DNA of 64,000 nucleotides from Patescibacteria group bacterium (GCA_004322365.1 SCTS01000002.1:12993-76992), one strand, 5' to 3'; shown: positions 17,892 to 41,283, counted from the first letter of the stretch. Numbers and translations are program-made. Notes: a model not told the origin generated them from the sequence alone.

Positions 17892-18883
17892 AGCGAGACG
17901 CGCCTTCCCTCTCGGGCTGAAATTCGCATCGCTTCCAAAACACTCGCTTGGCGGATGATACGGTCGTACATTTCTTCAAGCTGTTTTGTATTCTGTGCGA
18001 CAACAGCTTGGCAAAAGAAATCAAAACTAAGAGCGAATTGATTTGCTGTTGGGATTTCTAAACTCATGCGTGTGTCTTTGGCACCATCGTTGGTGATGAG
18101 TTCGACAATCGGTGCCATCGTAGGCGGTATAGCAAATGCGCGACTCGTTCGCACCATTCCTTTGGAACCCCAAACCGAATAGGTATTTTGATAGAGGTGA
18201 TCAAAACCAAATGACATCAGTGCAGTCCCCTTTTCGAATTCAAGAAATGCAGAACCTTTGATATCCACATCCTGGCCATCCTGTGCAAGCGTGCAAGTAA
18301 CGGCAACTGGTTCCTGTTGCATTATTTTTCGTGCCATGAAAACCGTATAGCAACCCGCATCGTTGAGAGCACCACCCTTCAAATCCGCGCTATAGCGAAT
18401 ATCACCAGACGGGAACGGTGGGAATCCGTACGCACCATTCCACACATGTGGTGTGCCGATTTTCCCTTCTGCAATGAGCGATAGAATTGTCGCGTGTTGT
18501 GGATGGAACTCGGGAACGAAATTCTCATACAATGCAACACCTTTTTCTCGACAAGCATTAACCATACGCTGTGCCGATTCTAGACTATAGGTAATCGACT
18601 TCTCGCAGATGATGTGTTTCCCAGACTGCGCCGTTTTTAGTACCCATTCCTCCTGAAGTCCCACAGGAAGTGGAATATATATGACATCGATATCGTCGCG
18701 CGCAATCAAGGAATCATAGGTCTCGGCTTCTACTCCGTGGCGCACTGCCCACTCCTCTGCCTTGCTCTTCTCGCGACTAGCTATCGCGACCAGCTCGATA
18801 TCGGGAAGGGATTTGAATGCTGGTATCGCGTATTTTTCCGCGATGTTAGCACAACCTAGAATACCGACACGGATTTTTTTCAT
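17888..18883 (-). CDS. Gfo/Idh/MocA-family NAD(P)-dependent oxidoreductase (candidate NDP-hexose 3-ketoreductase)
   Basis: IRVGILGCANIAEKYAIPAF Rossmann N-terminus and EKPI-like motif (ICEKS). Start at MKKIRVG overlaps the stop of the upstream gene (ATGA). Confidence 0.7.
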   Translation of the reverse strand: MKKIRVGILGCANIAEKYAIPAFKSLPDIELVAIASREKSKAEEWAVRHGVEAETYDSLIARDDIDVIYIPLPVGLQEEWVLKTAQSGKHIICEKSITYSLESAQRMVNACREKGVALYENFVPEFHPQHATILSLIAEGKIGTPHVWNGAYGFPPFPSGDIRYSADLKGGALNDAGCYTVFMARKIMQQEPVAVTCTLAQDGQDVDIKGSAFLEFEKGTALMSFGFDHLYQNTYSVWGSKGMVRTSRAFAIPPTMAPIVELITNDGAKDTRMSLEIPTANQFALSFDFFCQAVVAQNTKQLEEMYDRIIRQASVLEAMRISAREGRRVSL

Positions 18884-19518
18884 AACAAAGCGCATACATT
18901 ACGCGCGAGAGAATTAACCGTCGTATCAACGCGCAAGAGTTTCTTAATCTCGGGGAGTGTGAGCCAAATGTAATCTTCAGTAACGGGCACTTCTTCCGAT
19001 TCGTCCACCTCCACAAGCATTGAACGGTTCACCTTATGAAAAAACCGACCGCCGTCTTCGACGCCCAAAACTGATGCAATGAGTCTTCCTTTCGTCCCGT
19101 CAAAATATTCAGCAAGTCGTGGACGCTTTCCTCCATGCGCTTGCGCCAGATTGCCTTCGGAAACCTGACATGCCGGCGATATCTGCACATTGTTGATATT
19201 CCCCGGCTCAAATTTTGCATAGAAAAGATACTTTGTGACACCGTCTTTCTTTTGCACTAACACGCCTGAAATGCCGACCTCTTCCTGTTTCAACATCGGC
19301 TGACTCCACGACGGCACTTCCCTGTCCGACGCACCTGTTATCTTTACGCCAATAATCGAGAAAAATTTTCCTGACTCATGCGTGATATTCCCACTTACAG
19401 GATCTGTTTTCCAACCCTGCACATCATTTACCCCGACCGCTTCCACGGTGACTGGGTACGAATCCTGCTTTTCTTTGAGCCACGCGAGAATGGGATTTAT
19501 ATCAACGTCTTCATTCAT
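18880..19518 (-). CDS. Hypothetical protein, candidate single-domain NDP-hexose 2,3-dehydratase (EvaA/TylX3-like)
   Basis: 212 aa; EDGGRFFHK motif reminiscent of the EEGGRF motif of hexose 2,3-dehydratases. Context: immediately upstream of a Gfo/Idh/MocA reductase and near a sugar C-methyltransferase, as in 2,6-dideoxysugar pathways. Confidence 0.3.
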   Translation of the reverse strand: MNEDVDINPILAWLKEKQDSYPVTVEAVGVNDVQGWKTDPVSGNITHESGKFFSIIGVKITGASDREVPSWSQPMLKQEEVGISGVLVQKKDGVTKYLFYAKFEPGNINNVQISPACQVSEGNLAQAHGGKRPRLAEYFDGTKGRLIASVLGVEDGGRFFHKVNRSMLVEVDESEEVPVTEDYIWLTLPEIKKLLRVDTTVNSLARNVCALL

Positions 19519-19536
19519 ACCCCCACACCTTTTATC

Positions 19537-19791
19537 TCATAAAATGCTTCTTGAAATCCTCCTTTTGAGTTGCCCGAGCGCTTTCCCATCTTTCTTGAGA
19601 GAAAATTCTCTACCTCTTGCATCTCGTTCTGAAGTGTAAGCCTCATAATAACAGAGCTCAAAGGGTCGGCGAGGCTTGGTAGATTTGACCGCTCCGCCAT
19701 TGTGTTCGGAAAGTCTTCGACGCAAATCATTTGTCGATCCAACGTATAACTTTTCATCCTTGAGGCTTTTAAGCACATATACGTAATACAT
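19537..19791 (-). CDS. GIY-YIG nuclease-domain protein (stand-alone, UPF0213-like)
   Basis: YYVYVLKS...KLYVGSTNDLRRRLSEH: canonical GIY..YIG..R..H motif; 84 aa. Confidence 0.7.
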   Translation of the reverse strand: MYYVYVLKSLKDEKLYVGSTNDLRRRLSEHNGGAVKSTKPRRPFELCYYEAYTSERDARGREFSLKKDGKALGQLKRRISRSIL

Positions 19792-19830
19792 AGCGAATGG
19801 GTGGAGCCAATGAGATAAAAGGTGTGGGGG

Positions 19831-21060
19831 TCATACAATTTCAACACTAGGGATAGGGATAATAAATTTGGCACCGCGTGCACGCAATTCTTTTTCTTTT
19901 TCGAGAATGAAGTCACGGTAATTCCACGCAAGCAATAACACGTAGTCCGGCGTCTCGGTCTTTAGTATATCGGGAGAAACGACTGGAATATGACTCCCTG
20001 GTGTAAGGAGTCCAATTTTGTACGGAGTTGTATCAGTAACATACTCAACATCATCTTGAGTAAAGCCACAAAAATTTAAAAGAGTGTTGCCTTTGGCTGG
20101 TGCGCCATAAGCAACCACCTTCTTCTTTTCTCTCTGCATTCCTCGCACGAGCGACACGAGCTTCTCTTTGATTGCCTCTGCGTCTTTCTGGAAATCAGCA
20201 AATCGCGCGAGTGAGTGAAGTCCTGCTTTCTCTTCAAGTGCGAAAAGTTCATGCACAGAATTTTCAATCGGTAATCCGGACGCCTTGCGAGCAAAGACAC
20301 GAATAGACCCACCATGCGTCGGCATGCGTCGCACATCAAAAACTTCCATACCAAACCGACCAAATAAGTGCTGTAGAGGTTTCACGCTGTAATAGCACAG
20401 ATGCTCATGATAAACCGTATCAAATTCCCCATGCTCCACGAGGTCTAGTAAATAGTGCGACTCCGAAACGAATACGCCGTCATCAGTAAGAAGATCTTTT
20501 ACCCCTTGCACAATTTCATCAAGATCGTCTATGTGCGCAAAAACATTGTTCGCGGAAATGACTTTTGCCTTGCCCTTTGTCTCAACTATTTTTTTCGCCA
20601 TTTCAATGGTAAAAAAACCGTCCTCAGTTTCGATTCCTTTTGCACGCGCAGCTTCGGCAACATTCGCCGACGGTTCAATACCGAGCACTCGATTTGTACC
20701 AATGAAATTTTGTAACAAAATGCCATCATTGCTACCAATATCAACAACGAGGTCGTCTGGCGCCACATGTTCACTTTTTAAATCATTCGCATACGAACGA
20801 AAATGGTCAACGAGCGGTTTAGAAGCAGAGGAAAAATACGCATACTCACCGTGAAAAAGTTCGTCTTCCGCAACTACATCGAGAAGTTGAACCAGGTTGC
20901 AGGTACCGCAAAAATACACATCTAAGGGGTATCGTTTTTCGTCTTTGATATGTTCGGCATCAGTAAAATTATCAACTGGCGGATGCTCGCCAAGCGAGAG
21001 AATGCGCGTGAGACTAGAGCCTTTGCACACACGACAGATATCATTACGAAGATGGCTCAT
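19831..21060 (-). CDS. NDP-hexose C-methyltransferase (TylCIII/EryBIII-like; Zn-ribbon + class I MTase + C-terminal C-MT domain)
   Basis: N-terminal CxxC...CxxC (CRVCKG..CGTC), motif I VVDIGSNDG, 409 aa; architecture typical of sugar 3-C-methyltransferases. Confidence 0.6.
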   Translation of the reverse strand: MSHLRNDICRVCKGSSLTRILSLGEHPPVDNFTDAEHIKDEKRYPLDVYFCGTCNLVQLLDVVAEDELFHGEYAYFSSASKPLVDHFRSYANDLKSEHVAPDDLVVDIGSNDGILLQNFIGTNRVLGIEPSANVAEAARAKGIETEDGFFTIEMAKKIVETKGKAKVISANNVFAHIDDLDEIVQGVKDLLTDDGVFVSESHYLLDLVEHGEFDTVYHEHLCYYSVKPLQHLFGRFGMEVFDVRRMPTHGGSIRVFARKASGLPIENSVHELFALEEKAGLHSLARFADFQKDAEAIKEKLVSLVRGMQREKKKVVAYGAPAKGNTLLNFCGFTQDDVEYVTDTTPYKIGLLTPGSHIPVVSPDILKTETPDYVLLLAWNYRDFILEKEKELRARGAKFIIPIPSVEIV

Positions 21061-21084
21061 AGCACGCAGTATACCGAACGACTG

Positions 21085-21918
21085 TTATACCTTCCATTCC
21101 TCGGACACATACTCAGCAAGTGCCTCTTGCCACGGTCGGAGAGCTACCCGTTTTGAGGAAATAGATTCATTTGTTGGAAGCGTTGTGCTGGATGCGAAGT
21201 AACTTCGATCGACGGCACGCACGTGTGCGTCTGGCTTTACGTGGGTAGCCATTGCAGTAGCGAGGTCAAAGCGCGTAGCGGTACCAGCATTTGCAATGTG
21301 AAATATGCCCCGCTCGCCTTTTTCGAGCAGGTCTTTAATCGTTGCAACAAAATCTTTCCCGTATGTTGGCGAACCGTGCACATCGTAGAGAGCGGTGACC
21401 TCTGTGCCCGACCGCAATTGTTTCAGGACTTTTCCGTAAAACTTATTGTCTCGATCAGAACCACCACCAAATACCCACGCGGTGCGAGCGATGATGTACG
21501 ACTCTACAAGTGATGCGACGATGAGCTCGCTCATGTATTTAGTGCGGCCGTAGTGCGTCTGCGGATCTGGCGCGTCATCTTCAGTGTACGGACCTTTTTT
21601 GTGCCCGTCGAAAACACGCGAACTCGAAGCGAGAACCATGGTCGCGCCAACTGATGTGGCAGCTTGCGCCACATTGTACGTACCGCGCACATTAAGCTCG
21701 TAGGCATACAGGGGATCCTGTTCTGTTTTCACCATGTCAGTTGCGCCTGCGAGGTGAATGATCGCGCTTGGATTGTTTTTTTTGACGAACTCCATGACTG
21801 CATCCGCATCAAGAATATCGAGTGTTGTTTGGTCTGGACGATAGCCGAAATCTACATACGAACCGATCATTCCGCCGGCACCAATGGTAAGAACTTTTTC
21901 GAAATCAAAAGAGTTCAT
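21085..21918 (-). CDS. dTDP-4-dehydrorhamnose reductase-like SDR (RmlD-like 4-ketoreductase)
   Basis: Start set at MNSFDFEKVLTIGAGGMIGSYV (glycine-rich NAD motif), YGRTK YxxxK catalytic motif, about 277 aa. The upstream part of the track ORF carries the REP-like motif and is probably untranslated. Confidence 0.5.
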   Translation of the reverse strand: MNSFDFEKVLTIGAGGMIGSYVDFGYRPDQTTLDILDADAVMEFVKKNNPSAIIHLAGATDMVKTEQDPLYAYELNVRGTYNVAQAATSVGATMVLASSSRVFDGHKKGPYTEDDAPDPQTHYGRTKYMSELIVASLVESYIIARTAWVFGGGSDRDNKFYGKVLKQLRSGTEVTALYDVHGSPTYGKDFVATIKDLLEKGERGIFHIANAGTATRFDLATAMATHVKPDAHVRAVDRSYFASSTTLPTNESISSKRVALRPWQEALAEYVSEEWKV

Positions 21919-21940
21919 AGAGATGAAAGGTGTGGGGGGG

Positions 21941-22657
21941 TCATACAGCACGCTTCGCGATCTCATGTGCGACACGGAGTAGAGATTCGAATGTGCCCGC
22001 GTCCGACCACAAACCTTTAATAATTCCGTGGGAGAGTTTTTCTTTCTTGATATAGATGTTGTTGGCGTCCGTAATTTCCAACTCACTTCGCCCTGAAGGC
22101 TTCAGCGTTTTTATGATGGAAAAAATATCGTTGTCATACAGATAAAAACCAGTTTGGGCAAATTTTGATTTTGGTTTCTTTGGTTTTTCTTCAATCTTCA
22201 CTACCCTCTTACCTGCTGTATCAAACACGGGCACACCAAAACGGTGTGAGTCATTCATTGCCTTAAAAAATACTTTCGCGCCACCATTGAAAGAGGCAAC
22301 ATCTTTTGCAAAATCTTGTTCAAATATATTGTCACCCAGAATGACAGCAATCGGCCCTCCGTCGGAGAAATCTTCCGCGTAGCGTAGCGCGTCGGCGATA
22401 CCTCCGTTGTTTTTGTCTTGCAACGCATACGAGAGCTTGACACCGAACTCTCTGCCCGAGCCGAGGAATTGCATAAAGTGGCCCGCATGCTCGCGTCCAG
22501 TTACTATCATGATATCGGTAACGCCTGAACGCTGCAGCGTCTCCAGAGGGTAGAGAATCATTGGTTTGTTGTATACAGGAAGAAGGTGCTTATTTGTAAT
22601 AAGCGTCAAGGGGCGCAAGCGTGTACCGAGTCCTCCTGCAAGAATAACGCCTTTCAT
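21941..22657 (-). CDS. Sugar-1-phosphate nucleotidyltransferase, short-form glucose-1-phosphate thymidylyl/uridylyltransferase (RmlA-like)
   Basis: MKGVILAGGLGTRLRPLT signature, 238 aa. Confidence 0.7.
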   Translation of the reverse strand: MKGVILAGGLGTRLRPLTLITNKHLLPVYNKPMILYPLETLQRSGVTDIMIVTGREHAGHFMQFLGSGREFGVKLSYALQDKNNGGIADALRYAEDFSDGGPIAVILGDNIFEQDFAKDVASFNGGAKVFFKAMNDSHRFGVPVFDTAGKRVVKIEEKPKKPKSKFAQTGFYLYDNDIFSIIKTLKPSGRSELEITDANNIYIKKEKLSHGIIKGLWSDAGTFESLLRVAHEIAKRAV

Positions 22658-22658
22658 A

Positions 22659-23735
22659 CTATTTTTTATTTTTGTGCCCTTCCCACAAATCTATGTGCGG
22701 GTTGAATACACCAGTCTTACGGCGAACCCTCTCTATCCACTTCCTATTTTGAGTGTACCACTTTACCGTATCAGCAAAAGCCTGGTCAAAGAGGTACTCT
22801 GGTTTCCAGCCAAAGTCTTTCATAATGAGCGACGCGTCAATGGCATACCTACGGTCGTGCCCCGGCCTTTCGGCAACAAATTCAATCATGTCTTTACCTT
22901 TACCAAAATATTTCAAGATACGATCAGCGATTTCACGGTTATTCATCTCATTGTCCGCGCCAATGTTATACACCGTTCCTGGTTTTCCATTAAGGAGGCA
23001 TAGCTCCAGCGCCTTGCAGTGATCCAATACATACACCCAGTCACGCACATGATTACCATCACCATACAAAGGAAGTGTCTTTCCTTCAAGCATACGGAGT
23101 ACAAAAAATGGAATGAGTTTTTCTGGATACTGGCGCGGGCCGTAGTTATTAGAACAGTGCGTTACGACAACTGGCACGCCCCATGTATTGTGATAGGCAC
23201 GACACAGCATATCGCCTCCGGCTTTCGTCGCAGCATACGGCACATTCGGCGCAAACGCCGTATGCTCAGAAAACTTATCTTCAGAATCCAGCGCAAGCGA
23301 ACCATACACCTCGTCAGTAGAAACCTGTACAAACGATTGCACCGTACCTCCCACCTTGACGGCTTCAAGTAAATTGAACACACCAACGATGTTGGTATTG
23401 ATAAATTCCAGTGAGCCAACATGGATACTGCGATCAACATGCGTCTCGGCTGCGAAATTTATGACATAGTCGGGTTGATATTTCTTAAATACAGCAGTGA
23501 CTTTCTTTTGGTCAGCTATGTCACCGCGCACAAATGTATAGCGTGCATCTTTTACAAAATCTCGCACATTGTCCGTATTGCCGGAATAGGTAAGCTTATC
23601 AAAATTGATGATGCGCACCTTGGGATATTTCTCAAAGATATGATGAATGAAGTTCGAGCCAATGAATCCCGCTCCACCGCATACTAATAGCACCTTGCCA
23701 TTTAGGGAACGTTTCGCACTCTGTTTCGTTGACAT
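22659..23735 (-). CDS. rmlB: dTDP-glucose 4,6-dehydratase
   Basis: VCGGAGFIGSNF, YAATKAG (YxxxK), NNYGPRQYPEKLIP: hallmark RmlB motifs; 358 aa. Confidence 0.8.
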   Translation of the reverse strand: MSTKQSAKRSLNGKVLLVCGGAGFIGSNFIHHIFEKYPKVRIINFDKLTYSGNTDNVRDFVKDARYTFVRGDIADQKKVTAVFKKYQPDYVINFAAETHVDRSIHVGSLEFINTNIVGVFNLLEAVKVGGTVQSFVQVSTDEVYGSLALDSEDKFSEHTAFAPNVPYAATKAGGDMLCRAYHNTWGVPVVVTHCSNNYGPRQYPEKLIPFFVLRMLEGKTLPLYGDGNHVRDWVYVLDHCKALELCLLNGKPGTVYNIGADNEMNNREIADRILKYFGKGKDMIEFVAERPGHDRRYAIDASLIMKDFGWKPEYLFDQAFADTVKWYTQNRKWIERVRRKTGVFNPHIDLWEGHKNKK

Positions 23736-25580: not shown

Positions 25581-26681
25581 TCAATCAGAGTATGCCTCAA
25601 CGATATGCTCAGCGCGCCGTTTCCATGAATATTCTGCTACACGCACCAATGCATTTGTAGCGCGAACGCTACCCTCTGCGAGCGCGCATCGAATGCCTTC
25701 CGCAAGCGCCACGGCATCGTCAGGTGGCACCAAGAATGCTGTATGTTCATCCAAAATTTCGCGAATACTTGGCAAATCACTCGCAACAACTGGAATGCCA
25801 CTTGTCATATAGGCGAAAAGTTTCAGTGGAGATGTGAACCGTGTTGAGATTTCGTCGGTACCAGTATTTGGAAGAACCAACACATCAGCCGCCGCCATAT
25901 TGTCTGCAAGCTCTTTGTACGGACGAAAACCAAGGAATCGTACATTTGGATAGCGTAGAGATAACTGCGCCACTTGTTCGGGCTCACCACCAATAACCGC
26001 AAGCACAATATTATTTGGCAGATTCTTTGATGCCTCTAGAAGCGTGGCGACCCCTTTCCAACCATCAAGTCGTCCGATATACATTGCTATGGTTGCATCG
26101 AGAGGAAGATTGAGACGCATGCGAGCGGCGTCTTTCGATTGCGAGTGTGCGAACTGCTCTATGTCAACGCCGTCGTGTGCAACTGAAATTTTTTCTGCAG
26201 GAACACCTTTTTCGATATAAAAATCTTTTAGCCCTTGCGATATAACAACAATACGTTTTGCCCGTCGTGCCACCGTACGCGCCACTCTGTTCCAAGACCC
26301 CGTGTGTGACTCCCACACATACGGAAAAGGCAGATGCACAAGAACCAGTTCGTCTCTGCCATAAAGCATCCCAAAGGTTTTTCCACGAATATACCGCCGA
26401 ACGGCGAATGCAAAAAGAAATGACTCTAAAAGAAATCCTATTCTTCCGTATCGAACGGTATCCCATACAGAAAGCCGTCGTAGTGGAAATTGTGTTTTCA
26501 GTCCGTAATATGAAAAAGTATCTTCCACAATATCCGTCTTTCTGTTTGGAACGACAAGTTCAACATCATGACCAAGTGCAGTGAATGCTTCGCATGTTTT
26601 CATAATCTGCACACCATGCGCCTTCTCGGTCGGCAAGCGTATGTTTGCGATATAACAGATAGAGAGTTTCTTATGCGACAT
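25581..26681 (-). CDS. GT4-family glycosyltransferase
   Basis: Start set at MSHKKLSICYIAN; C-terminal GT-B motif; overlaps the upstream gene by about 11 nt. Confidence 0.6.
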   Translation of the reverse strand: MSHKKLSICYIANIRLPTEKAHGVQIMKTCEAFTALGHDVELVVPNRKTDIVEDTFSYYGLKTQFPLRRLSVWDTVRYGRIGFLLESFLFAFAVRRYIRGKTFGMLYGRDELVLVHLPFPYVWESHTGSWNRVARTVARRAKRIVVISQGLKDFYIEKGVPAEKISVAHDGVDIEQFAHSQSKDAARMRLNLPLDATIAMYIGRLDGWKGVATLLEASKNLPNNIVLAVIGGEPEQVAQLSLRYPNVRFLGFRPYKELADNMAAADVLVLPNTGTDEISTRFTSPLKLFAYMTSGIPVVASDLPSIREILDEHTAFLVPPDDAVALAEGIRCALAEGSVRATNALVRVAEYSWKRRAEHIVEAYSD

Positions 26682-27591
26682 AGGCTTCAATAATGCGTGG
26701 AATAAGACTCTGGAGCGAATGATGTTCGCGAATGTACGAGGGAGAAAGTGGAAGCCCGTTGATTGCAGGGTCAGTGGAATCGACCAGGCAACCACAGGCG
26801 GCGGCCTCCAAAACCACTTTGTCCAAAGAGCCAGTTTCACTGCGGTGGATAAGCTTTGTGGCAATGCGGTATTCGTCGCGAAGCCCTAATTGCGTGAGTC
26901 CACCTAGAAAAGTAACCTGAACACCGAGCTCACGCGCGAGCGCCGTAAGGCGCTCGCGCTCAACACCCTCTCCTGCTATACGGAGGGCGACGCCTGCATC
27001 TTTTGCCACGCGAATTGCAAGGTCGTGACGTTTGGTGGGCATAAGACGCCCAACGGAAAGAAGATGATTCCCGCGGGACACCTTCTCATCTGGAGCGAAA
27101 AATTCGGTATCAATACCGTGACCCATGACTTGCAGTTTTTTAGATGGCAGTCGAAAACTTTCCTTTGAGGCAGTGAAAATAACATCCACAAAAAGCTCAG
27201 CGACACGCAGTTTTAAATCTACCGATTTGTGCGTATACCACAAACCTATTGATTTTTTCCACGATTTCCAAAATAATCCACCAAGAATCACATACTCCGG
27301 ATTCATGTGAACGAGTACGGTGTCATAGTTTTTTCGCAATTTCCAAATCAGATATAAAAACCGAACCGAATACCCTATCCGCTTCAACAAACCACTATCA
27401 TATATGATAGTGGTTTGTTCTTTGCCCAGAGAATGAACACGAACATTTGATGGAAGATTATGTTTCCCCTCTTTTAAACAAATCACCTCTATACTCTCCA
27501 CATGCTTTGAAAATTCTTCAATCCAACGATGAAAAAATCCTAAGATGGCATCATCCCTATCAACGATTTGTGTAACGAGAAGGAGCTTCAC
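26671..27591 (-). CDS. GT-B fold glycosyltransferase (GT4-like)
   Basis: 306 aa; MKLLLVTQIVD N-terminus and GT-B C-terminal half with E-x7-E-like region (VVLEAAACGCLV). Confidence 0.5.
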   Translation of the reverse strand: MKLLLVTQIVDRDDAILGFFHRWIEEFSKHVESIEVICLKEGKHNLPSNVRVHSLGKEQTTIIYDSGLLKRIGYSVRFLYLIWKLRKNYDTVLVHMNPEYVILGGLFWKSWKKSIGLWYTHKSVDLKLRVAELFVDVIFTASKESFRLPSKKLQVMGHGIDTEFFAPDEKVSRGNHLLSVGRLMPTKRHDLAIRVAKDAGVALRIAGEGVERERLTALARELGVQVTFLGGLTQLGLRDEYRIATKLIHRSETGSLDKVVLEAAACGCLVDSTDPAINGLPLSPSYIREHHSLQSLIPRIIEAYVA

Positions 27592-28109
27592 GAAAGTTCG
27601 TTGAAAGAGTGAATAACTGTATGAGTACCTGCCCCCGCCTTTCCATCACGACGCATTTCATAAAGTTGAACCTGAGGACAATGTAGAGCTACTGAATCAA
27701 GTTCGCTAATTTTATCATCAATGAAAATCAATGGCTCTTGATATGAAGTAAGCATACGGGCAATAAAAGTACCCTTCCTCTCATCGCCATTATAAAAGAT
27801 AGGAAAAGAGGGGTCGTCGTGAAATACACTTTCCAATTTTGCTTTTTGAAGTTCGACATTTCCCGCAGTAACTATTGCAGAATTGTCGTGATTCTTTCTC
27901 AAAAAATCATTAGCGTCTGCATACATAAAACGATCTAATTCCCCTGGAGCAAACACAAGCAGTCCTTTTGCTGTCAGAGAATTTAACTCAGTCGCCATTT
28001 CAACTTCAGAGAGAGAAAGAAGTCCACCAAGGTTGTCCCTCTCCAAAATGTAAGCCAGAAAAGCTGAAGTATCAAAAAGCGTTCTGTCGAAATCGAGAAA
28101 ATAGGTCAT
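27588..28109 (-). CDS. HAD-superfamily hydrolase/phosphatase
   Basis: FLDFDRTLFDT = HAD motif I (DxDxT); 173 aa. Confidence 0.5.
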   Translation of the reverse strand: MTYFLDFDRTLFDTSAFLAYILERDNLGGLLSLSEVEMATELNSLTAKGLLVFAPGELDRFMYADANDFLRKNHDNSAIVTAGNVELQKAKLESVFHDDPSFPIFYNGDERKGTFIARMLTSYQEPLIFIDDKISELDSVALHCPQVQLYEMRRDGKAGAGTHTVIHSFNELS

Positions 28110-29209
28110 AGAAGCGACTGAATTACATCAGCTATTTTTTTCGGATCATGACGAATGAGGCTCCGTTCAATAGCGTCGCCTTCAATCTTGTGAAGTGGCA
28201 CTACATCAGCAAATGTACCGCGAACTACACGCGAATCATTACCAAGATCATCAACCACAGGAAATGCATTTTTCTTTTCATAGTATTCCAAAATATCAGC
28301 CGGAATAGCACCGACATGCATGATTATGTGATCAGGCTTTCTTCCTGCATACGCCTCAATCTCTGCAACATGCTTTGATGCACTGTATCCACTTGTTTCA
28401 GAAGCAGTACTAAAAATATTGACGAAATAAATAAGACACGCATTTGATTGCCTGACAGCTTCCTTAAGTCCCGGTACAGCAAAGTTTGCCAAAGTCGATG
28501 TATAGAGATCTCCAGGACCTAAAATAATAAAATCGGCTGAACCAACAGCAAGCTCTGCTTGATCAGCGAGCGAAATCTTCTCCGAAACACTAAGTCCTAC
28601 AATTGCAGGGCCCCCTGGTGGACGAGCATTGATAGCGTGCTGACCAACAATCCTCTCACCACCCTCAAGCTCTGCTACTAAGGTTGCTGGGAAATCAGAC
28701 ACGGGCACCACATACCCACGAACACGAAGAATTTCCGAAACAGCACGAATGGCTGCACCGTCAGATCCAAGTTTGTCAGTGAGTGCAGTAAGTAAAAGAT
28801 TACCAAGGTTGTGTCCAGCAATATCCCCTTTTGAAAATCGGTAGGTAAAAATATCTCGAAGCATCGTTCCGTCTTTTGCAAGAGCAACAAGCGCTTGTCT
28901 GGCATCTCCCAAAGGAAGAAAACCGTACGAATCGCGCAAACGACCCGTTGAGCCACCATCATCCGCTACAGAAACCACAGCAGACAGAGAAACGCCCGGT
29001 AAAGACTTCAAAGCTGAAAGCACAACGAATGTCCCCGTGCCTCCACCAATAGTGACAACGCGTTTAGCGTTTGTTACAAAGCGATGCCCAGACACGAATG
29101 CATTGCGCACAGCATGAGCACGACTCTCTGGAGTACGGGCAGGGCCGAAAATCGCCTTAAAGTGCGTTTTGATACTCCGAGAGATGTTGATGTGAGGCTT
29201 CTTGTTCAT
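28106..29209 (-). CDS. YvcK/CofD-family protein (UPF0052; gluconeogenesis-factor / 2-phospho-L-lactate-transferase fold), paralog 1
   Basis: VVTIGGGTGTFVVLSALK and VVSVADDGGSTGRLR signatures. Confidence 0.7.
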   Translation of the reverse strand: MNKKPHINISRSIKTHFKAIFGPARTPESRAHAVRNAFVSGHRFVTNAKRVVTIGGGTGTFVVLSALKSLPGVSLSAVVSVADDGGSTGRLRDSYGFLPLGDARQALVALAKDGTMLRDIFTYRFSKGDIAGHNLGNLLLTALTDKLGSDGAAIRAVSEILRVRGYVVPVSDFPATLVAELEGGERIVGQHAINARPPGGPAIVGLSVSEKISLADQAELAVGSADFIILGPGDLYTSTLANFAVPGLKEAVRQSNACLIYFVNIFSTASETSGYSASKHVAEIEAYAGRKPDHIIMHVGAIPADILEYYEKKNAFPVVDDLGNDSRVVRGTFADVVPLHKIEGDAIERSLIRHDPKKIADVIQSLL

Positions 29210-30189
29210 AGTAGTTTACGAATAGCTGTAGCAATCTTCATTGAATCATGGCGAATGAAGCTTCTCGGAACCGTATCACCCGCAACCTTTTCAGCCACAA
29301 TCACATCAGCAAATGATCCGCGAATTATTGACGCATCCTGCGGTAAATCATCCACAATAGGAAATTCATTCTCTTTCTTATAAAGCTCCAAGACATCATC
29401 AGGAAATGCGCCAACATGCATGATAATCGTATCGGGTCGTCTTCCTACATACCTCGTTATCTCTTCAATATGATGTGATGCAGTGTAATTGTCTGTCTGT
29501 CCTGCTTTCGTAAATAAATTCACAATGTATACAAGGTGCGCCTTTGCCCCCGTGACAGCTTCAGTAAGACCTGAAACAGTAAAATTTGCTACAGTTGAAG
29601 TAAATAAATCTCCAGGTCCTAAAATAAGTACATCGGCTTCGGCAACTGCCTCGAGTGCATCTGGTGAAACTGCGACAGATTCTTTTGTCTCAAGCGAAAC
29701 TATTGGTGATCGTCCTGATATTCTCTCATCAATGAGATGTTCGCCAGTAATTTTTTCTCCATTCTCAAGATGAGCAACGAGAGTTGCGGGTCGATCTGAA
29801 ACTGGCACCACACGCCCATCAACACGAAGTATCTTCGATGCAGCTTCTATAGCAAGAGCATCTGACCCAAGAATGTCAGTAAGTGCAATCAAAAAAAGAT
29901 TTCCAAAATTATGTCCGTTGATATCGCCTTTTGGGAATCGGTAATCAAACAAAGAGCGCATGAGTGGAGCGCCCGTATCATCAGCAAGAGCAATCAACGC
30001 TTGTCTTGCATCTCCTAACGGAAGAAAACCATACCCATCACGAAGACGGCCAGTAGAACCTCCATCATCAGCAACTGAAACTATTGCTTTCAGACACACA
30101 CCTTCGACATGCTTCAAGCCTGACAAAACAACAAAAGTGCCAGTGCCGCCACCAATAGTCACAATATTCTTTCGAGGTAAATCTCCCAT
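29206..30189 (-). CDS. YvcK/CofD-family protein, paralog 2 (tandem duplicate)
   Basis: IVTIGGGTGTFVVLSGLK and IVSVADDGGSTGRLRDGYGFLPLGDARQAL; collinear with the upstream paralog along the whole length. Confidence 0.7.
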   Translation of the reverse strand: MGDLPRKNIVTIGGGTGTFVVLSGLKHVEGVCLKAIVSVADDGGSTGRLRDGYGFLPLGDARQALIALADDTGAPLMRSLFDYRFPKGDINGHNFGNLFLIALTDILGSDALAIEAASKILRVDGRVVPVSDRPATLVAHLENGEKITGEHLIDERISGRSPIVSLETKESVAVSPDALEAVAEADVLILGPGDLFTSTVANFTVSGLTEAVTGAKAHLVYIVNLFTKAGQTDNYTASHHIEEITRYVGRRPDTIIMHVGAFPDDVLELYKKENEFPIVDDLPQDASIIRGSFADVIVAEKVAGDTVPRSFIRHDSMKIATAIRKLL

Positions 30190-30201
30190 AGTGAAATACT
30201 T

Positions 30202-31047
30202 CTATTGCGGTCCGTGTACGCCCTCCAAAAGATCTGGATCCTTCCCCGTACTTTTGAGAAGTTGAATATTTTTTTCTTGGAGATGTTTCAATGCCCCCGC
30301 ACCAATGTTGTCATCAACATGTAATGAATAAAAATCATTAAATGCAGAAAGATCCTTTATAAGACAATACCCACCTGCGCCACGACCACCTTCAAAATTC
30401 ACTGTGAGATGGGTTTTCCCAATACGCGGATCAGCGCCAAAAGCATCCTTTACTTTTTCGTAGTCAGCGCCAATAGAGTTGGATAAATCAAAAAGCATAT
30501 TTGCAAACACCACTTTCATTGCAAGAAAAACATTGCCTGCGTACTTCACAAGCTCACTTTCCTTTGATGTAACAATCGTTTGAAATGGCGACTTTGGAAA
30601 TGTCGCAAGGACTGCCTCTGCTGCTGCTCGGTGTTCTGGAGTGTCTTTTGGTATACCAACAATATTCCTGTCAGGATTCTGAACATCCGCATCAGCTGAG
30701 CGTGCACGCAAGAATTCTGGGGAATGAAGTATGACTCTGTCAGGATACATCTCCTGAATCTTCTCAGTCGTACCGGGCAACAAAGTCGACTTAATGACTA
30801 CAATTTTTCCTACTCCGACGAGATCCATAACTCCTTCAACGATAGACGAGTCAAATCCTTCAGGTGTTGTGGGTGTTGGTACTGCAATAATAACAACGTC
30901 ACATTCTAGAATTGCATCTTTATTGCCGATATACGCAGGCTCTTTTGAATACCGCACTACTGAAAAGCCTCGACGCTCATAATCGTCGGCATACGCCTTT
31001 CCAATGAATCCTTGTCCGATAAAACCAATTTTCATAGAGTTCTGCAC
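30202..31047 (-). CDS. Nucleotide-sugar dehydrogenase homolog (UDP-glucose/GDP-mannose 6-dehydrogenase family) lacking the C-terminal UDP-binding domain
   Basis: MKIGFIGQGFIGKAYA Rossmann motif, central domain, and GGYCLIKD catalytic-Cys motif (compare GGSCFPKD). Only 281 aa, with no room for the C-terminal domain before the next gene. Confidence 0.5.
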   Translation of the reverse strand: MQNSMKIGFIGQGFIGKAYADDYERRGFSVVRYSKEPAYIGNKDAILECDVVIIAVPTPTTPEGFDSSIVEGVMDLVGVGKIVVIKSTLLPGTTEKIQEMYPDRVILHSPEFLRARSADADVQNPDRNIVGIPKDTPEHRAAAEAVLATFPKSPFQTIVTSKESELVKYAGNVFLAMKVVFANMLFDLSNSIGADYEKVKDAFGADPRIGKTHLTVNFEGGRGAGGYCLIKDLSAFNDFYSLHVDDNIGAGALKHLQEKNIQLLKSTGKDPDLLEGVHGPQ

Positions 31048-31083: not shown

Positions 31084-32160
31084 TTATATAGAACACCTCG
31101 AGAGTGCCCTTTGGTAACAGAGGAGATACTCTTCCATAGACATACTATGATGACGGGCAGACTCAAGAGCCTGAGCGCCCAAACGCATGCGGATCTCCTT
31201 GTCTTCAATGAGGCGCTTCATAGCGACTGCAATTGCCGAGCTAGTTCCCGAGACTACCAAGGCTTCCTTTTTATCCTCGAACACTTCGCCAACAATCCCA
31301 ACATCAGTTGTAATTATTGCCAACCCAGAGAGCCCTGCTTCTATAAGAGATACTCCGTACCCCTCAAATCGAGACGCCTGAACAAACACATCTGCACTTT
31401 CATAGTATTGCGCAGGATCTTGCCATCCCACAAAACGAACCCTCTCCCCTAACCCTAAACGCTTTACCCTAAACTCTAAACTTTTCTTCAGCGGTCCATC
31501 ACCGACAATGGTGAGCTCAGCATCAGGAGTAAGAGCGACGGCATCAATAATTAAATGAACTCGTTTTTCACTCGTCAGTCTAGAAACTGATAGGAATTTC
31601 AAAGAACCAATGTTGGACCTCGTAGGTCCAACGTCTGAAGTGTATTCAGTATGTATAGGAAGCACTGTCACAGGCACCTTTGTAACTTTGCGGACACTTT
31701 TTAGAACACGCTCTGAAACAACACGGATGCAGGTAGCACGACCTAAAATAAAAATAGCGAGCAATGCCTCAATAACACGGCGAGGTGATTCCGTAAGAAA
31801 ACCGAGAGAAAAACAATCGGTATGGAGTTGTACTTGAAATGGAATATGGCGAGCTTTCGCAATACCGTATCCCAATACACCAATGAAAAAAGGATCTTGT
31901 GCTGACACGATGTCATATGCTTTCTCTTTAGTGAGCGCACGAAGAGTTCTTTGCATATTTAAAAAACTTGAAAATCTATTTGTACCTCCAGCAGTCACCG
32001 CTCGAACATTCGGTGCAAGTGTTATTTCTTGAGGCACTCCAACTCCAGCCACAACAATCAATAATTCATCAACAATACTGCCGTAAAGAGCCATGCGATT
32101 TGCTACGCGTGAACCTGCATCAAAAATCTTTACATCACTTGAAAGCATCAAGAGGTGCAT
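31084..32160 (-). CDS. GT4-family glycosyltransferase
   Basis: C-terminal EGYGVSLIEAGLSGLAIITTDVG GT-B motif; 358 aa. Confidence 0.65.
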   Translation of the reverse strand: MHLLMLSSDVKIFDAGSRVANRMALYGSIVDELLIVVAGVGVPQEITLAPNVRAVTAGGTNRFSSFLNMQRTLRALTKEKAYDIVSAQDPFFIGVLGYGIAKARHIPFQVQLHTDCFSLGFLTESPRRVIEALLAIFILGRATCIRVVSERVLKSVRKVTKVPVTVLPIHTEYTSDVGPTRSNIGSLKFLSVSRLTSEKRVHLIIDAVALTPDAELTIVGDGPLKKSLEFRVKRLGLGERVRFVGWQDPAQYYESADVFVQASRFEGYGVSLIEAGLSGLAIITTDVGIVGEVFEDKKEALVVSGTSSAIAVAMKRLIEDKEIRMRLGAQALESARHHSMSMEEYLLCYQRALSRCSI

Positions 32161-32161
32161 A

Positions 32162-33277
32162 TCAGTGTGTGTTCATCCCTTTTAGAAGCTTAGCGATTTC
32201 ATCAATCATGCGCTCATTAGAAAATTGCTTAACGCGCCGTTTCGCTGAAGCAACGAGATTGGCACGAAGTGTTGCGTCTCCCAAAAGAGCATTTGTATGG
32301 TTCATGATTGCATCCGCATCGTTTGCCTTCACAAGGTAGCCATTTTTTGCATGATCAACAATTTCCACATTGCCACCAACTTTGGTAGTAATAATAGGCA
32401 CGCCAATTGCCATTGCCTCCAAAATGAGATGCGAAAATCCTTCGTATGCAGTATTGAGAATAAACACATCAGACGCACGAAGATAGCGTATGAGAATATC
32501 TCGCTCTAAAGAGCCTGCGAAGATAACGTCATTCTCAACACCTGTTTCAACAGCAAGACGCTCGAGCATGCCTGCATCAGGACCTGAACCAATGATAAGC
32601 AGTTTTGTTTCTGGAAAAGATTTTTGAATTTTTGGAAGCAGACGAATGAGTGTGTCGAAACCTTTCCATGGCACCAACCTTCCCACTGATACAAGAAGTT
32701 TTCCATGAAACCTCAAGAGTCCACGAAGCACTGTTTTATTGCCAGTGTCTCCTAAGTCTTCAATGCCGTTGTATATAACTGAAACTTTTTTATGAGAGAG
32801 ATTCCATGCTCCAAGAATTTTTGCTAAATACTTTGACGGCACCACCACTCTGTCAGCACGACTTGCAACAGCACGCTCAACAAAGCGAAACATCTTAGGG
32901 ATTAGTGGAAGCGTAGCGTATTGAAATGATTCAAGGGTGCCAGTGTAACCAAAGCGTTGTGTCGCCTGCTCCCATGCGTAGTCACCAACAACTTTCAATA
33001 CAAAAGTTTTTTTCATGAAAAACGAAGCAATCATCGTCGGCACGCCGACAGACATTGGGTCTTGCGCATAAAGAATGTCAGCACGACGACCCTCCTTAAG
33101 TATGAGGAAAAAATACACTATATGGCGTATGAATTTCGGAAAACGACGGACTTTTATGAACGGCAAAACAATCACCTCAATTCCATACTGAGGAAGCGCC
33201 ACTTCAAGTTTCCTTGAATAGGTTGCGGGTCCGCCAATCTCGGGCGGGTAGAGTCCTGTCGCAATAAGGACTTTCAT
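32162..33277 (-). CDS. GT4-family glycosyltransferase
   Basis: MKVLIATGLYPPEIGGPATYS N-terminus and EGFSHLILEAMAIGVPIITTKVGG C-terminal motif. Confidence 0.7.
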   Translation of the reverse strand: MKVLIATGLYPPEIGGPATYSRKLEVALPQYGIEVIVLPFIKVRRFPKFIRHIVYFFLILKEGRRADILYAQDPMSVGVPTMIASFFMKKTFVLKVVGDYAWEQATQRFGYTGTLESFQYATLPLIPKMFRFVERAVASRADRVVVPSKYLAKILGAWNLSHKKVSVIYNGIEDLGDTGNKTVLRGLLRFHGKLLVSVGRLVPWKGFDTLIRLLPKIQKSFPETKLLIIGSGPDAGMLERLAVETGVENDVIFAGSLERDILIRYLRASDVFILNTAYEGFSHLILEAMAIGVPIITTKVGGNVEIVDHAKNGYLVKANDADAIMNHTNALLGDATLRANLVASAKRRVKQFSNERMIDEIAKLLKGMNTH

Positions 33278-35435: not shown

Positions 35436-36638
35436 TCAAAATATACTGAACACCCTTTCTCGCATATCTTTGGCAATGTGATTCCAGTCATATCCTTTCT
35501 CGGTAAGTGCCTCTGCATTCTGTACCACTACAGCTACGGCTTCAGGGTGCGCCAATATATGCTTCACCGTTTCAGCTATCTGCTTAGGGCTGTCAGCGTC
35601 AACCGCAAAACCGGTTGGTGCTTTATCTGGATTGCGCACCGAGTCAAAGAGAAAATCAGCAATACCTCCTTCTTGGGTTGCAATCACAGGGATGCCACTA
35701 GCAAAAGCCTCTATAAATGAATTTCCCATACCCTCCGAGCGTGAAGGTCGAATGAATATGTCGGACACATGAAGATACTTCGGGATATCCCCGTAGGTAA
35801 CATGACCAAGAAACAGCACCCTAGTTTGTAACTTGGAGTTTGTAACTTGGAGTTTGAGCTTCTCTTCATCCGGACCAGTGCCGAGAATAAGAAATTTTAT
35901 ATTTTCAGGGAGAAGTGAGAGTGCATGAATAACATCATCAATTGCATTTTTATGAACGAGTCGTGATGCAGTAATGAGAAAAATATCATCCTTCCCTTTA
36001 TGGAGTTTTTCTTTAAGAGCAATGAGTTCCAACACAGGAACTTCCTTTGAAAACGCCACCGTGTTAACACCATTTGGAATTACTATCGGCTCGCCTGCAT
36101 AGCCCATTCGTTTTGCCCACGCCCCAAGAAAAGTGGAAATAACCTGCACCCTATCTGCACCTGTAAAAGCATATTTAAATAGAGGCCACGCTGGCAATGC
36201 AAGTCGTTCAATATATTTTGGCGGATCTCCCTCTTGAAGAGTAAGAACATATTTAACTGAAGGCTTAAGGAGTTTAAATATCCCTACTGCAATACCCACT
36301 GAATGCGCCATCATCCCCCATATCCCGTCGTAGCGGTATTTCTTATGAAGAGTAAGTGCGTAGAAAGGTGCGAGGCCTTGGAAAAGAAATTTATTTAAAG
36401 CAAGCGGAAACTTCTTTAAATCAGCCATTGACGGGTTGTTGGTAACAAACCCAATGCGGTGCACCAACACATTTCCTACCTGCTCCACTTTTGGTAGAGC
36501 CGAATCAAAACGAAGCGTCACCATATGAAACTCAATGTCTGTGCAGGCTACACGGTCGGTAATATCTTTAATGGCAACCTCAGCGCCCCCTATATATTTT
36601 GGATAGTATGCGAGAGAAAAAATGAGAACTCGTTTCAT
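35436..36638 (-). CDS. GT4-family glycosyltransferase
   Basis: LAYYPKYIGGAEVAIKDI N-terminus and EGMGNSFIEAFASGIPVIATQEGG C-terminal motif. Contains a 14-nt tandem duplication at about 35826-35853. Confidence 0.7.
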   Translation of the reverse strand: MKRVLIFSLAYYPKYIGGAEVAIKDITDRVACTDIEFHMVTLRFDSALPKVEQVGNVLVHRIGFVTNNPSMADLKKFPLALNKFLFQGLAPFYALTLHKKYRYDGIWGMMAHSVGIAVGIFKLLKPSVKYVLTLQEGDPPKYIERLALPAWPLFKYAFTGADRVQVISTFLGAWAKRMGYAGEPIVIPNGVNTVAFSKEVPVLELIALKEKLHKGKDDIFLITASRLVHKNAIDDVIHALSLLPENIKFLILGTGPDEEKLKLQVTNSKLQTRVLFLGHVTYGDIPKYLHVSDIFIRPSRSEGMGNSFIEAFASGIPVIATQEGGIADFLFDSVRNPDKAPTGFAVDADSPKQIAETVKHILAHPEAVAVVVQNAEALTEKGYDWNHIAKDMRERVFSIF

Positions 36639-37504
36639 TTCTTTCCTGTTACTTCATGAATGTACTCTGCCACACCTTTAGTCGGATTCCATCCCAGTGC
36701 CTGAGCCTTAGAAATATCAATAGCGGAACTGAGTCGGTTTCCTGCTCGCTCTGGCAACATCTCTATTTCGCCACCAAACATCTGTGCGATTTCGAGGACT
36801 GAATACTCTTGCGTATCTCCGAGCCCATAGTTATCGCCCTCACCTTTTTCACCAACCAGCGCCAGACCAGCAACAATGTCGCCAACATACGTGAAATTAC
36901 GCTTCTGTGTTCCCGGTGTCACCACACCGAGCACTTCTCCTTTCAAATGCTTCTGTCGAAATATTTCAATGAGCGTCCCGTATGCTCCGGAGCGCTCTCG
37001 AGGACCGTACACATTGTAGAAATAAGTAACTGCATACGACAGCCCGTACCACTCACCATAATTTTTTACGAGCTCAGTGTTCGCTGCCTTTGTCCACGCA
37101 TACGGAGTAGCCGTGCGACTCAAACCTCCATCACCAAACTTTGTTGAGGAACCCGCGTAGACTATTTTGCATTTTCGTTTTCTCCAAAACTCCAACACCC
37201 CAAAAGTACCGAGGGTATTCAAGTCAAACACCAACTCTGGTTCAGCGAGACTTATTTCCACGCGCGAATATTCACCAAGATGGTAGATGAGATCGATGTG
37301 CTCAGGAACAAACTTCTCAATGTCTTTCGTGTGTCCTTCTCGGTAATCCACCCCCGCAACATGGTTATCCTTTGAGCCAGCAAAATAGTTATCGAGCGAG
37401 ATGACCGTATGGCCATCTTTTACCAACCTCTCGCACAAGTGCGAACCTACAAGCCCAGCTCCGCCAGTGACTAAAATAGTTTTCTTTCCTGAGTCTTGAG
37501 CCAT
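36635..37504 (-). CDS. NAD-dependent epimerase/dehydratase family SDR (function unresolved; decarboxylase, reductase or epimerase)
   Basis: ILVTGGAGLVGSHL, YAWTKAA (YxxxK), NVYGPRE; 289 aa. Confidence 0.55.
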   Translation of the reverse strand: MAQDSGKKTILVTGGAGLVGSHLCERLVKDGHTVISLDNYFAGSKDNHVAGVDYREGHTKDIEKFVPEHIDLIYHLGEYSRVEISLAEPELVFDLNTLGTFGVLEFWRKRKCKIVYAGSSTKFGDGGLSRTATPYAWTKAANTELVKNYGEWYGLSYAVTYFYNVYGPRERSGAYGTLIEIFRQKHLKGEVLGVVTPGTQKRNFTYVGDIVAGLALVGEKGEGDNYGLGDTQEYSVLEIAQMFGGEIEMLPERAGNRLSSAIDISKAQALGWNPTKGVAEYIHEVTGKK

Positions 37505-40701: not shown

Positions 40702-41283
40702 TTATTTAGCTGGAGACAAACCAAAGCGTCGGCGAAGAGCTCCATCATTCTCTATGGTGTCAGCAATGATGTAGAGAACCTCCTGCCCCATCTTAAGGTC
40801 AGCCTTGATGAGTATAATCAAGTCCTCACAGTCATACGGATACGCCCACACACTATTCTGCAAACGAACAAACCCAAGATTGATCAGCGCCATTCGCATC
40901 TTGTCGCGCAAACCTCGTCGTTTCTCCTCAATATCAAAAACAAGTACACGCCACTTACCATCCCACTGCTTTGGTTTTTTAGGAGTCACTGAACCCTCAT
41001 GCACCAGCATCGCAAATCGCTCCCCTTTCGGAGTCAAAGACGCATACGAAGTGCCATTTCTTTTTTCAAGAACGATGTACCCTTCACGAATCATTCGTGA
41101 AAAAGATTCTTTCACCTGATAGCGCCGTTGGTTAAGAAACTTCATCTTTCCCAAAGCCCCAAGAACATTTGGTGCGACAGCGGCAACAGCAAGCGTGCCA
41201 GTAAGCGCTACTGCATTAATGATTGCATTGTTAATCTTTGTACGGCGAATCTTCCCTTTCAGCGCTTGTTCAATTTTTCCCAT
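40702..41283 (-). CDS. PaaX-family transcriptional regulator (wHTH + PaaX middle domain)
   Basis: QWDGKWRVLVFDIEEKRRGLRDKMRMALINLGFVRLQNSVWAYP matches the PaaX WDGxW / GFGxLxxSVW core; N-terminal wing RNGTSYASLTPKG; 193 aa. Confidence 0.55.
   Translation of the reverse strand: MGKIEQALKGKIRRTKINNAIINAVALTGTLAVAAVAPNVLGALGKMKFLNQRRYQVKESFSRMIREGYIVLEKRNGTSYASLTPKGERFAMLVHEGSVTPKKPKQWDGKWRVLVFDIEEKRRGLRDKMRMALINLGFVRLQNSVWAYPYDCEDLIILIKADLKMGQEVLYIIADTIENDGALRRRFGLSPAK

Follow-up and report, generated by a model that had tools for sequence, protein, structure and literature searches.

A 64,000-nucleotide stretch of DNA from a Patescibacteria group bacterium (GCA_004322365.1 SCTS01000002.1:12993-76992), called the window throughout, carries a four-gene module in which two tandem paralogues of the YvcK/GlmR family are packed together with a short dehydrogenase and a small HAD-fold protein inside an envelope-glycan locus. 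All four genes lie on the minus strand and are co-directional: the open reading frame (ORF) of a short dehydrogenase of the UDP-glucose dehydrogenase (UGDH) family (30202..31047, 281 aa from a GTG), YvcK-B, the ancestral-type YvcK/GlmR paralogue (29206..30189, 327 aa), YvcK-A, the diverged paralogue (28106..29209, 367 aa), of which ~48 codons (29066..29209, minus strand) form a cationic, partly amphipathic N-terminal extension, and a HAD-fold protein with a C1 cap (27588..28109, 173 aa). The genes overlap as ATGA at both the YvcK-B/YvcK-A and the YvcK-A/HAD junctions, the stop codon of the HAD gene overlaps the next, GT1-type glycosyltransferase gene as GTGA, and the gap between the dehydrogenase stop and the start of YvcK-B is 12 nt. 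The sequence-only reading that preceded this analysis had described two adjacent YvcK/CofD-family genes of 367 and 327 aa with shared motifs, co-oriented and overlapping with a HAD gene in a glycan locus, and this layout is confirmed, the module being surrounded by glycosyltransferase and sugar-pathway genes. By tblastn the 64 kb contain exactly two YvcK copies, with no third, as well as one short dehydrogenase and one HAD-like gene. The 173-aa HAD-like protein is 100% identical to a protein of a metagenome-assembled genome (MAG) labelled 'Patescibacteria group bacterium', and the nearest species representatives are Parcubacteria/Paceibacterota MAGs.

The role of YvcK/GlmR has been argued over, the protein being viewed as an activator of GlmS, as a sensor of UDP-N-acetylglucosamine (UDP-GlcNAc) or as an accessory uridyltransferase. 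Both paralogues contain the Pfam CofD domain (PF01933, E 1.7e-72 and 1.6e-76), have the GGGTGTFVVLS and VSVADDGGSTGRLR motifs in common, and are 61% identical to each other over 321 residues (E 8e-140). Against the YvcK/GlmR model TIGR01826, with a cutoff of 196, YvcK-A scores 263.1 bits and YvcK-B 275.4 bits, while the CofD equivalog TIGR01819, with a cutoff of 257, gives them 23.9 and 29.5 bits; of the double label YvcK/CofD the first half therefore holds and the second falls away, and on these profile scores both paralogues are of the YvcK/GlmR type and not of the CofD type. Each aligns end to end with BH3568 of B. halodurans (E 3e-58 and 2e-54). Both copies contain VADDGGSTG with its consecutive Asp pair, which is kept throughout an alignment of 147 sequences, D41 being present in at least 95% of each of the three sequence groups; the corresponding pair (D38/D39 in Bacillus subtilis, D40/D41 in Listeria monocytogenes) is required for the uridyltransferase activity of GlmR (PMC10128056, PMC13046274). 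Through the BH3568 alignment Y270 and R313 (copy B numbering) match the Tyr and Arg (Y265 and R301) required for UDP-GlcNAc binding in B. subtilis (PMC7525490), and they are conserved in all sequences compared. The Glu of a 'GE' motif, E145 in BH3568, is found in all five solved Firmicute YvcK homologues that were compared (2O2Z, 2HZB, 2PPV, 2P0Y and 2Q7X) and in copy B (E150), and is Gln in copy A. YvcK-B keeps D41/D42, E150, Y270 and R313.

These scores and residues bear on the function first proposed for the pair, in which YvcK-A and/or YvcK-B would act like CofD and move a phospho-sugar, phosphoglycerol or phospholactyl group from a nucleotide-diphospho donor to a glycan or lipid carrier, producing a teichoic-acid-like decoration. 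YvcK is homologous to CofD, a true phosphotransferase, and a weak match to 3c3d was obtained; the genes are located among transferases, donors could come from several nucleotidyltransferases of the window, one related locus (L021) has a CDP-glycerol glycerophosphotransferase close to the module, and a CofD-family gene of M. fermentans stands beside a polysaccharide synthase (PMC11658790). The CofD scores far below cutoff and the conservation of the residues that define GlmR nonetheless argue against it, no CofC-like partner is consistently adjacent, an otherwise identical cluster works without the module, and a HAD phosphomonoesterase would have no obvious role once a phosphodiester had been formed. 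No evidence pointing towards phospholactyl or phosphoglycerol transfer was found, and we regard this explanation as quite unlikely.

The small HAD-fold protein falls below every Pfam HAD threshold, the nearest being PF12710 with 16.1 bits against a cutoff of 27 (E 0.016), and its assignment is accepted despite this score because of its invariant motifs and its fold, which bear out the label of HAD phosphatase that it had been given from sequence. HAD motifs I-IV (DxDxT, S/T, K and DD) are all intact, the Thr of motif II lying within a conserved VTxG segment, and D6, D8, T10, K112, D131 and D132 are invariant among 68 HAD-like homologues. The AlphaFold2 (AF2) model reaches a predicted local distance difference test (pLDDT) score of 95.3, and each of the 23 PDB matches that Foldseek returned at E<=1e-3 has a HAD fold, the nearest being C1-cap proteins, namely sugar-phosphate phosphatases and beta-phosphoglucomutase. 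A profile search of 1.84 billion representatives yielded ~50 close HAD-like clusters at E<=1e-30, and the family seems confined to Patescibacteria-like contigs.

The arrangement of these genes was followed in window-related loci collected from three independent anchors, the dehydrogenase, YvcK and the HAD protein, with the genome context read as the 64-kb window plus locus flanks of up to 10 kb. In all 20 of the window-related loci that have a HAD-like gene, yvcK lies beside it or across the dehydrogenase only, and a core recurs in the order epimerase, GT4, GT4, GT4, (dehydrogenase), yvcK, HAD, GT1. An independent sample of metagenome contigs anchored on the HAD gene comprised 56 loci, of which 49 were informative and seven lay too near a contig end to judge. 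The yvcK gene directly precedes the HAD gene in 39 of them and is followed by the dehydrogenase and then the HAD gene in three, so that yvcK adjoins the HAD gene in 42 of the 49 informative loci; the others comprise one cluster without yvcK (L031) and six loci with a different HAD subclade. Only three of those 42 loci contain a tandem yvcK pair, and about half of the long yvcK loci in the HAD-anchored sample include the short dehydrogenase. The order varies between dehydrogenase-yvcK-HAD, yvcK-dehydrogenase-HAD and yvcK-HAD-dehydrogenase, the genes remaining neighbours throughout; a GT4 gene precedes and a GT1 gene follows the module in nearly all loci, and orthologues of the two GT4 genes keep the same position. 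The conserved unit is yvcK together with the HAD gene, the tandem pair being a minority state, and the glycan cluster also occurs without the yvcK-HAD unit (L022) or without yvcK (L031). In two species the first GT4 of the core is contained in an ORF of 884-888 aa (L013:4231-6897 and L018:4386-7040), about twice the usual length, which may be a fusion with the upstream gene.

A yvcJ-yvcK-whiA operon is described for Firmicutes and Actinobacteria. In bacteria without F420, yvcK has been stated to be always associated with yvcJ, in synteny with yvcJ/rapZ and whiA (PMC7525490). The published synteny does not hold at this locus, which has GT4, short dehydrogenase, HAD and GT1 genes around yvcK; neither RapZ, WhiA nor a separate UGDH C-terminal domain was found among window ORFs of at least 150 aa scanned with Pfam, and no F420 genes were seen among the ORFs so scanned. 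The HAD gene as the constant partner of yvcK, and the glycosyltransferase operon in place of yvcJ-yvcK-whiA, were both absent from the sequence-only reading. No paper joining YvcK or CofD with Patescibacteria was found in the searchable library, and a search there on GlmU in the candidate phyla radiation (CPR) gave nothing relevant.

Among window-related loci, two yvcK genes are present only in L001 and L004-L010, which are the closer relatives of the window. Related Paceibacterota have one yvcK at the same position, indicating that the pair arose by lineage-specific duplication of a resident gene; the suspicion that the paralogues might prove to be housekeeping YvcK proteins present once per genome is thus largely confirmed, related species having their one yvcK at exactly this position. 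In a neighbour-joining (NJ) tree of 147 sequences the A clade is monophyletic with a bootstrap of 100/100, and the B type is inseparable from the single-copy orthologues (20/100). Five positions that are at least 90% conserved within each type differ between B and A (E150Q, D154N, R160G, I222F and E273K); at four of these the residue of B also prevails in the remaining non-A sequences (86-94%), position I222 being variable there. Glu150 is replaced by Gln in 100% of the A clade, against 94-100% Glu in non-A sequences. The N-terminal extension of ~48 residues is present in 27 of 35 A-clade sequences, with both length and pattern conserved, shorter in two and lacking in six. Its net charge in YvcK-A ranges from +7 to +13, and its peak hydrophobic moment is 0.5-0.7, compared with 0.44 at the 95th percentile of the protein body. 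As read from these alignments, copy B stayed ancestral and copy A gained a cationic extension and lost a conserved Glu.

Ratios of non-synonymous to synonymous substitution rates (dN/dS), computed against the nearest relatives at a dS of 0.8-0.9, are 0.037-0.049 for YvcK-A, 0.085-0.091 for YvcK-B, ~0.09 for the YvcK-A extension taken by itself, and ~0.08 for both the HAD gene and the dehydrogenase. Values of 0.04-0.09 for all four genes indicate purifying selection, with neither YvcK copy decaying, and a pseudogene or decaying duplicate is accordingly rejected, the N-terminal extension included.

The dehydrogenase has the Pfam domains PF03721 (NAD(P)-binding) and PF00984 (central, dimerisation) and lacks PF03720; the GGYCLIKD motif is present, and its TIGR03026 score of 135.9 bits is below the cutoff of 189.8. 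It had been called C-terminally truncated, and the missing C-terminal domain and the retention of the catalytic residues stand, whereas truncation does not. Among the best 120 homologues taken from a 5.8-billion-protein collection, 119 are 276-330 aa long and one is 415 aa; every one has just this pair of UGDH domains, and many independent contigs are represented, so that the short form is the norm of a conserved Patescibacteria dehydrogenase family with no local truncation. A frameshift or assembly artefact, or a local deletion, is likewise rejected: the 12 nt between the dehydrogenase and YvcK-B leave no room for a frameshifted C-terminal domain, and the homologues on independent contigs are equally short. 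Since homologues are mostly 277 aa, the start codon is probably the ATG at 31035 and not the GTG at 31047. T88, E111, K168, N172, C228 and D232 are invariant in 39 aligned homologues and were equated with the catalytic residues of UGDH by alignment and established UGDH enzymology. The AF2 model has a pLDDT of 94.7, and comparison with UGDH by Foldseek gives a TM-score of 0.79 over the query and ~0.5 over the target, as for a UGDH minus its UDP-binding domain. Ahead of the catalytic Cys the loop has been remodelled and reads GRGAGG(H/Y)C, its Arg (R222) being invariant. From its residues the short dehydrogenase would be an active enzyme with UGDH-type chemistry, its substrate probably being held differently from UDP-glucose. 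The literature search found nothing relevant on UGDH forms lacking the C-terminal domain.

This family occurs in several settings: within the GT4 cluster, either alongside yvcK or with yvcK missing (L022), and alone, and elsewhere it stands directly before GtrA, a polyprenyl-phosphate GT2 and a PMT_2 GT-C enzyme. On these contexts it belongs to envelope-glycan synthesis and is no obligate partner of YvcK. In one of these loci (L023:2909-4345) a bAvd-like gene and a reverse transcriptase (RVT_1) lie just upstream of the GT4/short-dehydrogenase/GtrA cluster, a pair which is the signature of a diversity-generating retroelement. A 169-aa gene that follows a stand-alone dehydrogenase in L002 was considered as a HAD homologue and rejected, no similarity being detected.

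The neighbourhood of yvcK and a dehydrogenase without its nucleotide-sugar-binding part raises the thought of a split enzyme, in which YvcK would provide the missing UDP-binding function in trans, the two proteins together making up a UDP-glucose dehydrogenase of two subunits. In 16 of the 20 window-related loci yvcK and the dehydrogenase gene adjoin, they remain neighbours despite changes of order, and YvcK binds UDP-sugars (PMC7525490). Dehydrogenases ~55-60% identical to that of the window, however, have no yvcK within 6-7 kb in any of five sampled loci, the dehydrogenase is present in only about half of the long HAD-anchored yvcK loci, and YvcK has a fold that bears no relation to the C-terminal domain of UGDH. 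Of the rival explanations weighed here the split dehydrogenase is the most weakened, and it appears highly improbable.

A further reading takes the loss of the C-terminal domain as a change of substrate. The dehydrogenase family might represent a new class of hexose 6-dehydrogenases whose substrate is a hexose free of any nucleoside, such as a sugar-1-phosphate, a polyprenyl-phosphate-hexose or a glycolipid, with YvcK and the HAD protein completing a route to uronic acid; in one example, a hexose-1-phosphate would be oxidised by the dehydrogenase and then uridylylated by YvcK, with the HAD protein as mutase or phosphatase. If true, this would be a Patescibacteria-specific route to uronic-acid envelope glycans or glycolipids that bypasses the classical UDP-glucose dehydrogenase step, and YvcK/GlmR would gain a natural operon in which its primary role is clearly enzymatic. 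We consider it a doubtful proposal with a low probability.

The reading preferred here, which we place at about even probability on the strength of conserved residues and gene order, is that the YvcK-HAD module supplies or gates a UDP-sugar for the glycosyltransferases of the operon, yvcK being resident in a glycan operon. The pair would act on small phospho-sugar and nucleotide-sugar metabolites. By analogy with what is reported for GlmR, YvcK would convert a sugar-1-phosphate and UTP to a UDP-sugar, with feedback through binding of the product, and the HAD protein would process a sugar phosphate as phosphatase or mutase. Copies A and B would probably act jointly, B as the catalytic and A as a modified subunit with a membrane-targeting or regulatory part, though a hetero-oligomer is purely inferred. 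Supply or gating is favoured because the paralogues keep everything known to matter for GlmR, because the module is accessory, the cluster existing without it, which fits a chain-building step less well, because the folds closest to that of the HAD protein are those of sugar-phosphate enzymes, and because the genes are co-translated with enzymes that consume UDP-sugars. Several points weigh against this reading: native GlmR could not replace GlmU and NagU in S. aureus (bioRxiv 10.64898/2026.06.23.733835), the NJ tree from which the history of the two copies is read was built on simple distances, and the DAGK_cat kinases that accompany a sister subclade of the HAD family usually act on lipids, so that this link could mean lipid and not sugar phosphates.

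The same evidence may also be read without catalysis. YvcK could be a pure sensor or regulator that binds UDP-GlcNAc or UDP-glucose and switches a partner enzyme, be it the GT4, the dehydrogenase or the HAD protein, comparable to B. subtilis GlmR with GlmS and YvcJ, and the A/B pair would then widen the range of ligands or partners. The conservation of the UDP-GlcNAc-binding Tyr and Arg in all sequences compared (PMC7525490), the accessory nature of the module and the doubt cast on in-vivo uridyltransferase activity in S. aureus (10.64898/2026.06.23.733835) agree with such a role. The catalytic DD pair and other family-invariant residues are just as strictly conserved, however, the genes are translationally coupled to enzymes of a biosynthetic operon, and the regulatory partner gene yvcJ was not found among the scanned window ORFs of at least 150 aa. 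Sensing by itself is therefore rated as unlikely.

The sister subclade of the HAD protein links the family to a second kind of partner. One HAD-like cluster consists of a 485-aa fusion (P0367) with a DAGK_cat/YegS-type kinase domain, found on six contigs with no yvcK nearby (for example L026:8001-9458 and L027:463-1920); its C-terminal half was considered as a GT1 neighbour and rejected as such, being the DAGK_cat kinase domain. Six odd metagenome loci contain the same sister subclade, likewise with yvcK absent from the vicinity, and five of these have a separate DAGK_cat gene that shares 4-17 nt with the HAD gene, the kinase domain being confirmed by Pfam in three of the five and inferred from near-identical loci in the other two; the sister-subclade HAD and DAGK_cat genes are located at L064:6150-7576, L069:6121-7588, L070:1342-2804 and L081:6120-7582. 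In L061 the HAD gene lies between MraY-like and FtsW-like genes. The HAD family is thus tightly coupled to one of two partners, either YvcK or a DAGK_cat kinase, each a phosphotransfer-type protein, and that the partner in the sister subclade is another phosphotransfer enzyme was counted in favour of supply or gating.

The association with DAGK_cat also feeds an explanation centred on membrane lipids. The HAD protein would dephosphorylate a lipid phosphate, such as phosphatidate to diacylglycerol, or a polyprenyl or glycolipid phosphate, while the GT4 enzymes build a glycolipid or lipid-linked glycan; the dehydrogenase would oxidise a lipid- or phosphate-linked hexose to a uronic acid, hence needing no UDP-binding domain, and the cationic amphipathic extension of YvcK-A would dock the complex on the membrane. 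The fusion or overlap of the sister HAD subclade with a lipid-type kinase and the position of the HAD gene in L061 are consistent with this, as are the occurrence of the short dehydrogenase directly before GtrA, polyprenyl-phosphate GT2 and PMT_2 genes, the ArnC/PgfS-like GT2 in the window cluster, the charge and hydrophobic moment of the YvcK-A extension, and the invariant R222 ahead of the catalytic Cys of the dehydrogenase. All these links nevertheless come only from gene context, the nearest folds of the HAD protein are soluble sugar-phosphate phosphatases, a membrane segment is predicted in none of the four proteins, and kinases of the DAGK_cat fold include NAD kinases and sugar-phosphate kinases. 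A membrane-lipid function for the module is consequently judged improbable.

Around the module, the envelope-glycan genes form one long locus that spans ~1 to 38 kb of the window. In the conserved core, and assigned by Pfam, two GT4 glycosyltransferases (358 and 371 aa, 31084..33277) precede the module, a further GT4 (400 aa) and an NAD-dependent epimerase/dehydratase (289 aa) form its upstream end (35436..37504), and a GT1-type glycosyltransferase (306 aa, 26671..27591) lies downstream of the HAD gene, all on the minus strand. The locus also encodes a Wzy-like ligase, a PMT_2 enzyme and a Wzx-like flippase, several GT4 and GT2 enzymes, the ArnC/PgfS-like GT2 among them, methyltransferases and an LTD/PKD surface protein, and holds genes of the GDP-mannose and dTDP-deoxysugar pathways. 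None of the flanking glycosyltransferases reaches the cutoff of an equivalog model that might have hinted at the glycan. A promoter scan for the operon limits was uninformative, promoter-like sites being fewer than in shuffled sequence, and the terminator-like hits that were checked against gene coordinates all fall inside coding sequence.

Several neighbouring genes are of interest in their own right. A complete-looking dTDP-sugar set at 17888-23735 comprises RmlA-, RmlB- and RmlD-like genes, an NDP-hexose 2,3-dehydratase, a GFO/IDH/MocA reductase and a C-methyltransferase, within the reduced genome of a member of the Patescibacteria, and suggests a deoxy or branched-chain sugar. Within this set, the RmlD-like ORF (21085-22657; 333 aa from a GTG) overlaps the RmlA-like gene by ~145 bp, its Pfam match begins only at residue 83, and its start is probably over-extended. 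Similarly, a 427-aa ORF beginning with TTG that encodes a GT4 (25581-26864) overlaps the upstream GT1 gene by ~190 bp; its homologues are 365-405 aa long, so that the real start is probably an internal Met (MSHKKL, near 26678). The region 40702-45097, just beyond the glycan locus, encodes a PaaX/Cas2-like protein of 193 aa and a 1006-aa protein with an LCAT-like alpha/beta-hydrolase (lipase/acyltransferase) domain, the latter of which may be relevant to lipid scavenging.

A YvcK/GlmR protein that is found away from yvcJ and whiA and is tied to a dedicated HAD enzyme offers a simple natural setting in which to probe the function of this family, to which the split of one lineage into an ancestral and a Glu-mutated copy adds. 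A dehydrogenase family that has all catalytic residues and no C-terminal domain may use a substrate other than a nucleotide sugar. Together, the YvcK module and the dehydrogenase are relevant to the way in which the ultra-small Patescibacteria assemble their cell surface, a matter of importance for host attachment.

Each of the proteins belongs to a known superfamily; the module counts as a new variant, and so do the short dehydrogenase family and the diverged paralogue. Like GlmR/YvcK of Bacillus subtilis and Listeria monocytogenes, both paralogues score above the TIGR01826 cutoff and retain the GGGTG loop, the catalytic DD pair, and the Tyr and Arg that bind UDP-GlcNAc; unlike them, they are coupled to a HAD gene within a glycosyltransferase operon, with no yvcJ-yvcK-whiA operon, the gene is duplicated in tandem, and copy A has Gln in place of the GE Glu and a cationic extension of ~48 aa. 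With CofD/FbiA (LPPG:Fo 2-phospho-L-lactate transferase) the paralogues share the Pfam superfamily PF01933 and, in copy A, a distant match to 3C3D (E 0.004), but they score about one tenth of the TIGR01819 cutoff and have no CofC partner adjacent. The HAD protein resembles the C1-cap HADs AlnB, HDHD4/NANP, CbbY, beta-phosphoglucomutase and YihX in its HAD Rossmannoid core, the small helical cap after motif I and all four catalytic motifs, and differs from them in its very small size (173 aa), the unusual motif I DFDRT, and R9, K91, R153 and R154, which are invariant or nearly so. The short dehydrogenase shares with UGDH (Ugd/TuaD/AglM and human UGDH) the N-terminal Rossmann and central helical domains and the catalytic Thr, Glu, Lys, Asn, Cys and Asp, all invariant across its family, and its top structural matches are UGDH; it is nearer to UDP-glucose dehydrogenases than to UDP-ManNAc or GDP-mannose dehydrogenases. 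It departs from UGDH in a C-terminal UDP-binding domain missing across the whole family, a compact N-terminal domain, the remodelled GRGAGG(H/Y)C loop ahead of the Cys with its invariant Arg, and a score under the TIGR03026 cutoff. After strand beta-2 it has an Arg-Tyr pair in place of an acidic residue of UGDH, a substitution which may give the short dehydrogenase a preference for NADP.

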